Shown here piece after piece: positions 51,134 to 52,096 of a stretch of DNA of 64,000 nt. The translations under genes were made by a program, and so were the position numbers. Origin of the DNA: Escherichia coli (GTDB taxonomy: Bacteria; Pseudomonadota; Gammaproteobacteria; Enterobacterales; Enterobacteriaceae). Within the stretch, counting starts at the first letter, position 1. Each line of letters opens with the position of its first letter. Below the pieces are notes generated by a model. That model saw nothing but the letters and a program-made list of their open reading frames with translations. It was not told the DNA's origin and did no database searches. Where the stretch lies: NCBI RefSeq assembly GCF_016026235.1, contig NZ_CP065613.1; one strand, 5' to 3'.

Positions 51134-51156
51134 ATTAAGGATGTTGTAACTAAAGT
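51134..51156 (+). other. Replication terminus site (TerB-like) immediately upstream of tus
   Basis: ATTAAGGATGTTGTAACTAAAGT contains the Ter core GTTGTAAC and the flanking CTAAAGT; about 2 mismatches to the TerB sequence as I recall it. Confidence 0.7.
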
Positions 51157-51166
51157 GGTTAATATT

Positions 51167-52096
51167 ATGGCGCGTTACGATCTCGTAGACCGACTCAACA
51201 CTACTTTTCGCCAGATGGAACAAGAGCTGGCTGCATTTGCCGCTCATCTTGAGCAACACAAGCTATTGGTTGCCCGCGTGTTCTCTTTGCCGGAGGTAAA
51301 AAAAGAGGATGAGCATAATCCGCTTAATCGTATTGAGGTGAAACAACATCTCGGCAACGACGCGCATTCGCTGGCGTTGCGTCATTTCCGCCATTTATTT
51401 ATTCAACAACAGTCCGAAAATCGCAGCAGCAAAGCAGCTGTCCGTCTGCCTGGCGTGTTGTGTTACCAGGTCGATAACCTTTCGCAAGCAGCGTTGGTCA
51501 GTCATATTCAGCACATCAATAAACTCAAGACCACGTTCGAGCATATCGTCACGGTTGAATCAGAACTCCCCACCGCGGCACGTTTTGAATGGGTGCATCG
51601 TCATTTGCCGGGGCTGATCACCCTTAATGCTTACCGCACGCTCACCGTTCTGCACGACCCCGCCACTTTACGTTTTGGCTGGGCTAATAAACATATCATT
51701 AAAAATTTGCATCGTGATGAAGTCCTGGCACAGCTGGAAAAAAGCCTGAAATCACCACGCAGTGTCGCACCGTGGACGCGCGAGGAGTGGCAAAGAAAAC
51801 TGGAGCGAGAGTATCAGGATATCGCTGCCCTGCCACAGAACGCGAAGTTAAAAATCAAACGTCCGGTGAAGGTGCAGCCGATTGCCCGCGTCTGGTACAA
51901 AGGAAATCAAAAACAAGTGCAACACGCCTGCCCTACACCGCTGATTGCACTGATTAATCGGGATAATGGTGCGGGCGTGCCGGACGTTGGTGAGTTGTTA
52001 AATTACGATGCCGACAATGTGCAGCACCGTTATAAACCTCAGGCGCAGCCGCTTCGTTTGATCATTCCCCGGCTGCACCTGTATGTTGCAGATTAA
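51167..52096 (+). CDS. tus: DNA replication terminus site-binding protein Tus
   Basis: 309 aa from [22 protein letters not shown]. Confidence 0.95.

Follow-up and report, generated by a model that had tools for sequence, protein, structure and literature searches.

The terB-tus locus at positions 51134-52096 of the window (the whole 64,000-nt stretch of E. coli DNA that was analysed) is very probably a standard module in its ancestral orientation, situated between two copies of ISEc60 that were inserted independently and point in opposite directions, in an IS-rich lineage. The sequence-only reading of this DNA had raised the possibility that a pair of IS copies has inverted, or still inverts, the block that carries tus, which would flip the polarity of terB. 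As far as the evidence reaches, however, there is no sign of a flipped terB polarity here. The span to which that proposal was attached runs exactly from the first base of the Ter site to the end of the tus stop codon.

The Ter site and the tus gene

The genes that make up the locus are the following.

49790-51091, plus strand: rstB, upstream of the Ter site as in K-12
51167-52096, plus strand: tus, replication terminus site-binding protein of 309 aa (from comparison with 1ECR/2EWJ and the model TIGR02648)
52093-53496, minus strand: fumC, downstream of tus as in K-12

The sequence ATTAAGGATGTTGTAACTAAAGT at 51134-51156 (plus strand) is a 23-bp terB-type Ter site located 10 nt 5' of the tus ATG, inside the rstB-tus intergenic region (the rstB stop is at 51091, the end of Ter at 51156, and the tus ATG at 51167). 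The TerB-like 23-mer that had been noticed just upstream of tus is thus genuine. No other sequence in the 64-kb window comes as close as 3 mismatches to K-12 terB (AATAAGTATGTTGTAACTAAAGT), and 100 shuffles contained none. The number of differences from TerB, previously given as about two, is exactly 2: the site is identical to K-12 terB at 21 of 23 positions, and the changes affect only position 2 (A>T) and position 7 (T>G). Positions 8-23 are unchanged with respect to K-12 terB, and positions 8-18 (ATGTTGTAACT) are the same in both K-12 terB and terC. In terC, moreover, position 2 is T and position 7 is G, as in the window. At the C6/G6 position, which the sequence-only reading had singled out as critical for the comparison with canonical terB, the window keeps G6 (C6 on the opposite strand). 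It is by the base at position 6 that a legitimate Ter site is judged in Goodall et al. 2021 (PMC8347550), G6 being needed for the Tus-Ter lock. According to the legend of Fig. 3 in the same paper, Ter base pairs 1-5, 7, and 19-23 are highly variable, and the conserved core consists of base pairs 6 and 8-18.

The variant is also widespread. The 60-mer at 51120-51179, which comprises Ter and its surroundings, is found as an exact match in 785 of 5,426 complete E. coli genomes, O157:H7 strains included, and K-12-type genomes differ from it at two bases. In comparison with the terB allele of O157:H7 (~14% of complete E. coli genomes), the site itself is identical and the IS context alone differs. 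Both changes fall in variable positions, and nothing in the sequence suggests a defective Ter site. The window variant appears to be a common natural allele, presumably fully functional, and its two base changes with respect to K-12 terB are best regarded as neutral natural variation. That these changes instead weaken Tus binding or the lock, terB having decayed in this lineage, is hard to believe. The two mismatches to the K-12 reference would agree with such decay, as would the gene decay seen elsewhere in the lineage (uidB W7* and the IS-disrupted rspB), but positions 2 and 7 vary among functional Ter sites (PMC8347550, Fig. 3 legend), terC itself has T2 and G7, and the same allele is carried by all 785 of the complete genomes mentioned above.

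As for Tus, the protein is identical to the crystallised K-12 protein (PDB 1ECR/2EWJ) at 306 of 309 residues, the differences being I23A, Q67H, and D247N. It also matches the Tus family model TIGR02648 over its full length with 546.7 bits (cut-off 178.3). The gene order rstA-rstB-tus-fumC-fumA-manA-ydgA-uidCBA agrees with that of other E. coli. The locus of K-12 MG1655 shares with the window the order rstB-terB-tus-fumC, a Ter site just 5' of the tus start, G6, and the core 8-18. Unlike K-12 MG1655, the window has the changes at positions 2 and 7 of the site, the three substitutions in Tus, and copies of ISEc60 located 31 kb upstream and 11 kb downstream. According to the literature, the Ter site adjoining tus overlaps the tus promoter region, so that binding of Tus there results in autorepression. 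A simple promoter scan found no consensus promoter in the rstB-tus gap of the window.

Two other Ter-like sequences were encountered in the genomes used for comparison. The 23-mer TTGAATATGTTGTAACGAAAGCT lies within the ORF ycjV of strain FDAARGOS_943, at position 37025 (plus strand) of the retrieved piece, and it probably belongs to the known pseudo-ter sites that are embedded in ORFs. In strain S163-2, a prophage terminase gene contains a chance match to the Ter core, TGCGTGATGTTGTAACGATCAAT, at position 25819 (plus strand) of the retrieved piece, in which position 6 is T instead of G.

The ISEc60 copies and the block between them

From left to right, the window contains the following features around the terB-tus locus.

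1-17057, minus strand: tail-to-capsid structural genes of the lambdoid prophage that occupies the Qin site, ydfJ/rspB (oriented natively with respect to the block)
17058-18321, minus strand: IS600 (IS3 family), truncating the prophage capsid gene
18322-18904, minus strand: prophage remnant of ~584 bp with int (its first 84 nt), xis, and exo (its last 142 nt), inverted in comparison with the native order
18905-20198, plus strand: left copy of ISEc60, 1,294 bp, in rspB, with its transposase at 18988-20178
20199-20824, minus strand: 5' part of rspB, which the left ISEc60 copy interrupts
20199-63100, no strand assigned: core-chromosome block of 42.9 kb, from the rspB 5' fragment to uidA (collinear with FDAARGOS_943, 99.9%)
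63101-64000, minus strand: right copy of ISEc60 between uidA and uidR, incomplete at the end of the window (opposite in direction to the left copy)

The block carries rspA, ynfA-H, dmsD, clcB, mlc, pntAB, rstAB, terB, tus, fumCA, manA, ydgA, and uidCBA. It is bracketed by two inverted arms, 19299-20201 and 63098-64000, which are 42,896 nt apart and differ over 903 nt by a single mismatch, found at the outer edge. The window stops within the right arm, and the identity covers these visible 903 nt. The ends of the element, CTGAGGAATCCCCAGAAAA and CTGAGGGATCCCCAGAAAA, are terminal inverted repeats with 18 of 19 positions matching. Its transposase (396 aa) reaches 360.5 bits with NF033591 (cut-off 152), which identifies it as an IS4-family DDE transposase, and PF01609 is also on record for it. 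Of the claim that an IS10-like pair brackets tus, the inverted pair and its IS4-family nature hold, but the element is filed not as IS10 itself but as ISEc60, the name that RefSeq gives to identical copies.

The terminal sequence CTGAGGRATCCCC of ISEc60 appears to resemble the ends of IS10, and the pair has in common with Tn10, which carries an IS10 pair, both an IS4-family transposase and the inverted arrangement of the copies. The target duplication of IS10 is 9 bp. ISEc60, unlike Tn10, is associated with a target duplication of 10 bp, and its copies have been inserted separately in the core chromosome and form no mobile unit. In relatives that have simple ISEc60 insertions, these 10-bp duplications are cagtcagccc (in rspB) and gggaattctc (between uidA and uidR). 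The left copy in the window, however, has flanks without a matching duplication (tggctttccc vs cagtcagccc), and its absence fits a later rearrangement at this copy.

Two inverted IS4-family copies around a segment of DNA are also what would be seen if the pair and the block were a composite transposon that had moved in as a unit, in the style of Tn10. This can practically be dismissed: the block is core chromosome at its usual place, strain RMDEC364 has the uidA-side copy alone, and in relatives each IS copy has a separate 10-bp target duplication of its own, which rules the composite transposon out. The copies are thus treated below as separate insertions.

The T/G homopolymer that precedes the right copy (63085-63095) varies in length between genomes, being T5G6 in the window, T4G8 in FDAARGOS_943, and T5G7 in both RMDEC364 and CABEFB02.

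Orientation of the block in the window and in related genomes

The prophage genes from tail to capsid (1-17057) are on the minus strand, as are rspB and rspA. A related prophage of strain S163-2 lies natively between ydfJ and rspB and has the same orientation relative to rspA as in the window. Thus, with respect to the Qin-site prophage beside rspB, which adjoins it on the left, the 43-kb block has its ancestral orientation. The GC skew of the block (-0.033) and the one KOPS motif found in the window are both uninformative with respect to a recent flip.

Long assemblies extend the comparison. In UGFA01000002.1 (GCA_900449985.1, 4.56 Mb), matched to the window through the truncated RspB protein and taken as its source, 20,630 bases are 100.000% identical to positions 10195-30824 of the window, the unusual left junction included; this junction occurs in no complete E. 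coli genome of the collection searched. By arithmetic, the window corresponds to approximately 823,201-887,200 of UGFA01000002.1 on the same strand, and we infer that uidR in all likelihood lies directly past the right ISEc60 copy there. The contig CABEFB020000009.1 has the arrangement exo-xis-int-rspB3'-ISEc60-rspB5'...tus...uidA-ISEc60-uidR-hdhA, in which the two copies are mutually inverted and each has its own 10-bp duplication (cagtcagccc and gggaattctc, respectively). In JAALAC010000002.1 the order is uidA-ISEc60-uidR, with 2 mismatches in 6 kb relative to the window. Judging by these junction sequences, two near-identical relatives have the block with its native neighbours on either side. 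The possibility that the IS pair has inverted the block is therefore not borne out, given its ancestral orientation relative to the left neighbour and the native arrangement in CABEFB020000009.1 and JAALAC010000002.1.

FDAARGOS_943, the nearest complete genome (99.9% identical over the block), has ipaH and some 35 copies of ISEc60, and its termination area is rearranged. Its junctions (NZ_CP065615.1) read uidA-ISEc60-IS1-ycjV and uidR-ISEc60-ompG, which means that the segment 1,108.7-1,361.9 kb is inverted with respect to the K-12 order, an inversion of 253 kb with inverted ISEc60 copies at its ends. The inverted segment holds dif (1,276,572), terC (1,287,143), terB (1,349,168), and tus, with dif and terC on opposite strands, which is also the K-12 state. 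Since the inversion turned dif along with both Ter sites, it keeps the trap logic: each fork still finds the sites permissive on its way to dif and blocking once it is past dif. Goodall et al. 2021 (PMC8347550) report natural inversions in the termination area of EDL933, SMS-3-5, IAI39, S. flexneri, and S. boydii, by which Ter sites are flipped or moved, terB being moved together with tus in IAI39. The trap logic and the position of dif are kept in these rearrangements. The ISEc60-bounded inversion of FDAARGOS_943 is of the same kind. Unlike those genomes, the window itself shows only a potential substrate, the inverted IS pair, and no such inversion.

The copy used by the FDAARGOS_943 inversion is the uidA-side one, the same that stands at the right end of the window. 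The right copy in the window might therefore have recombined with a distant one in the same way, terB and tus being inverted together with dif and terC over hundreds of kilobases. The 99.9% identity of FDAARGOS_943 over the block, the location of dif, terC, and terB inside its inverted segment, and the fact that the window ends within the very IS copy involved would all be in line with such an event, which is nevertheless unlikely. First, two relatives that are closer or equally close retain uidA-ISEc60-uidR. Second, among the matches listed for ycjX there is no second uidR-ISEc60-ompG arrangement. Third, uidB has a derived nonsense codon, W7* (codon 7, 60970-60972, minus strand), which the window has in common with JAALAC010000002.1 and several short-read assemblies, whereas FDAARGOS_943 is without it. 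This codon is a lineage marker of gene decay. The native arrangement around the window, with uidR next to the right copy, thus remains the preferred reading.

As for the left copy, ISEc60 interrupts rspB at exactly the same nucleotide in FDAARGOS_943, the window, and CABEFB02 (window 20198/20199), and the rspB-side copies of FDAARGOS_943 and CABEFB02 have the same 10-bp duplication cagtcagccc; the orientation in FDAARGOS_943, however, is opposite. Homologous recombination was considered as the cause and rejected, since such recombination leaves the direction of an IS unchanged with respect to its own flank. The opposite orientation therefore points to either two independent insertions into a preferred target or an excision followed by re-insertion.

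The ~584-bp remnant at 18322-18904, which lies between IS600 and the left ISEc60 copy, also bears traces of rearrangement. In the native order exo, xis, and int are on one strand and rspB is on the other. The remnant is best explained, and most simply, by a history of three steps: a second ISEc60 would have entered exo, its recombination with the copy in rspB would have inverted ~2.5 kb, and an IS600-associated deletion would then have taken the rest of the prophage. ISEc60 does cause inversions in this lineage, as evidenced by this remnant and by the 253-kb inversion of FDAARGOS_943.

Predicted fork polarity and the probable cost of a flip

The Tus-Ter complex arrests replication forks that reach the end with position 1 and G6, and lets forks from the opposite side through. 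This polarity is that of the lock model reported by Mulcair (2006), and PMC8347550 is consistent with it. Tus is predicted to bind the 23-bp site at 51134-51156, and the site would then stop forks moving from left to right in the window, that is, from rstB towards tus. Forks arriving from the fumC/uidA side, which in the K-12 layout is the origin side of the replichore, would pass terB. The argument that a flip of the block would reverse the polarity of Ter is sound as a hypothetical one: the IS copies form inverted repeats of 1.3 kb, and homologous recombination between them could flip the 43-kb block. No dedicated invertase is associated with the block, and only general recombination between the IS copies could act.

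If the block alone were flipped, the origin-side fork would be stopped at terB and the other one, as before, at terC. The interval between terB and terC, which are 62 kb apart in FDAARGOS_943, would then be copied only via failure of the barrier or recombination-dependent restart. As summarised in a review (PMC10331603, citing Bidnenko 2002 and 2006), Ter sites in the blocking orientation cause stalled forks, make homologous recombination necessary, and are lethal without it. The strains with ectopic or inverted Ter sites of Bidnenko, Ehrlich and Michel 2002 (via PMC10331603) are laboratory constructs, and the blocking orientation is only hypothetical here. By analogy with them, a lone flip of the block would carry a fitness cost and is probably counter-selected. 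Because it would be costly, the flipped state is not expected to persist.

A block that flips back and forth via IS recombination, with part of the population having terB in the blocking orientation, is accordingly a most improbable state, even if the arms measure 1.3 kb, with near-identity over the visible 903 nt, and the left IS copy was apparently involved in a small inversion on the side away from the block. Apart from the expected cost, the two long assemblies with the inverted pair (UGFA and CABEFB02) show the block in a single orientation, with rspB5' at the rspB-side copy in each. Were a flip to occur at a measurable rate, some cells of a natural population would have terB blocking the fork from the origin side and would depend on recombination to survive, and the flipping block would be the spontaneous equivalent of the laboratory strains with inverted Ter.

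As it stands, the locus has little significance. The terB-tus module is a textbook locus that is already known, its allele is common, and IS-mediated inversions of the termination area have already been described; the value of the case is that of a worked example. The expansion of IS elements in Shigella-like E. coli puts recombination substrates around the polar elements of the fork trap, and those rearrangements that last, the 253-kb inversion of FDAARGOS_943 among them, carry dif, terC, and terB jointly, which keeps the trap logic. This pattern of persistence agrees with the published surveys of E. coli and Shigella.

Besides the inverted IS arms, the window contains a direct repeat within the block. 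Three runs with 70-76% identity, located at 25607-29704 and spaced by 2,484 nt, correspond to the paralogous genes ynfE and ynfF.
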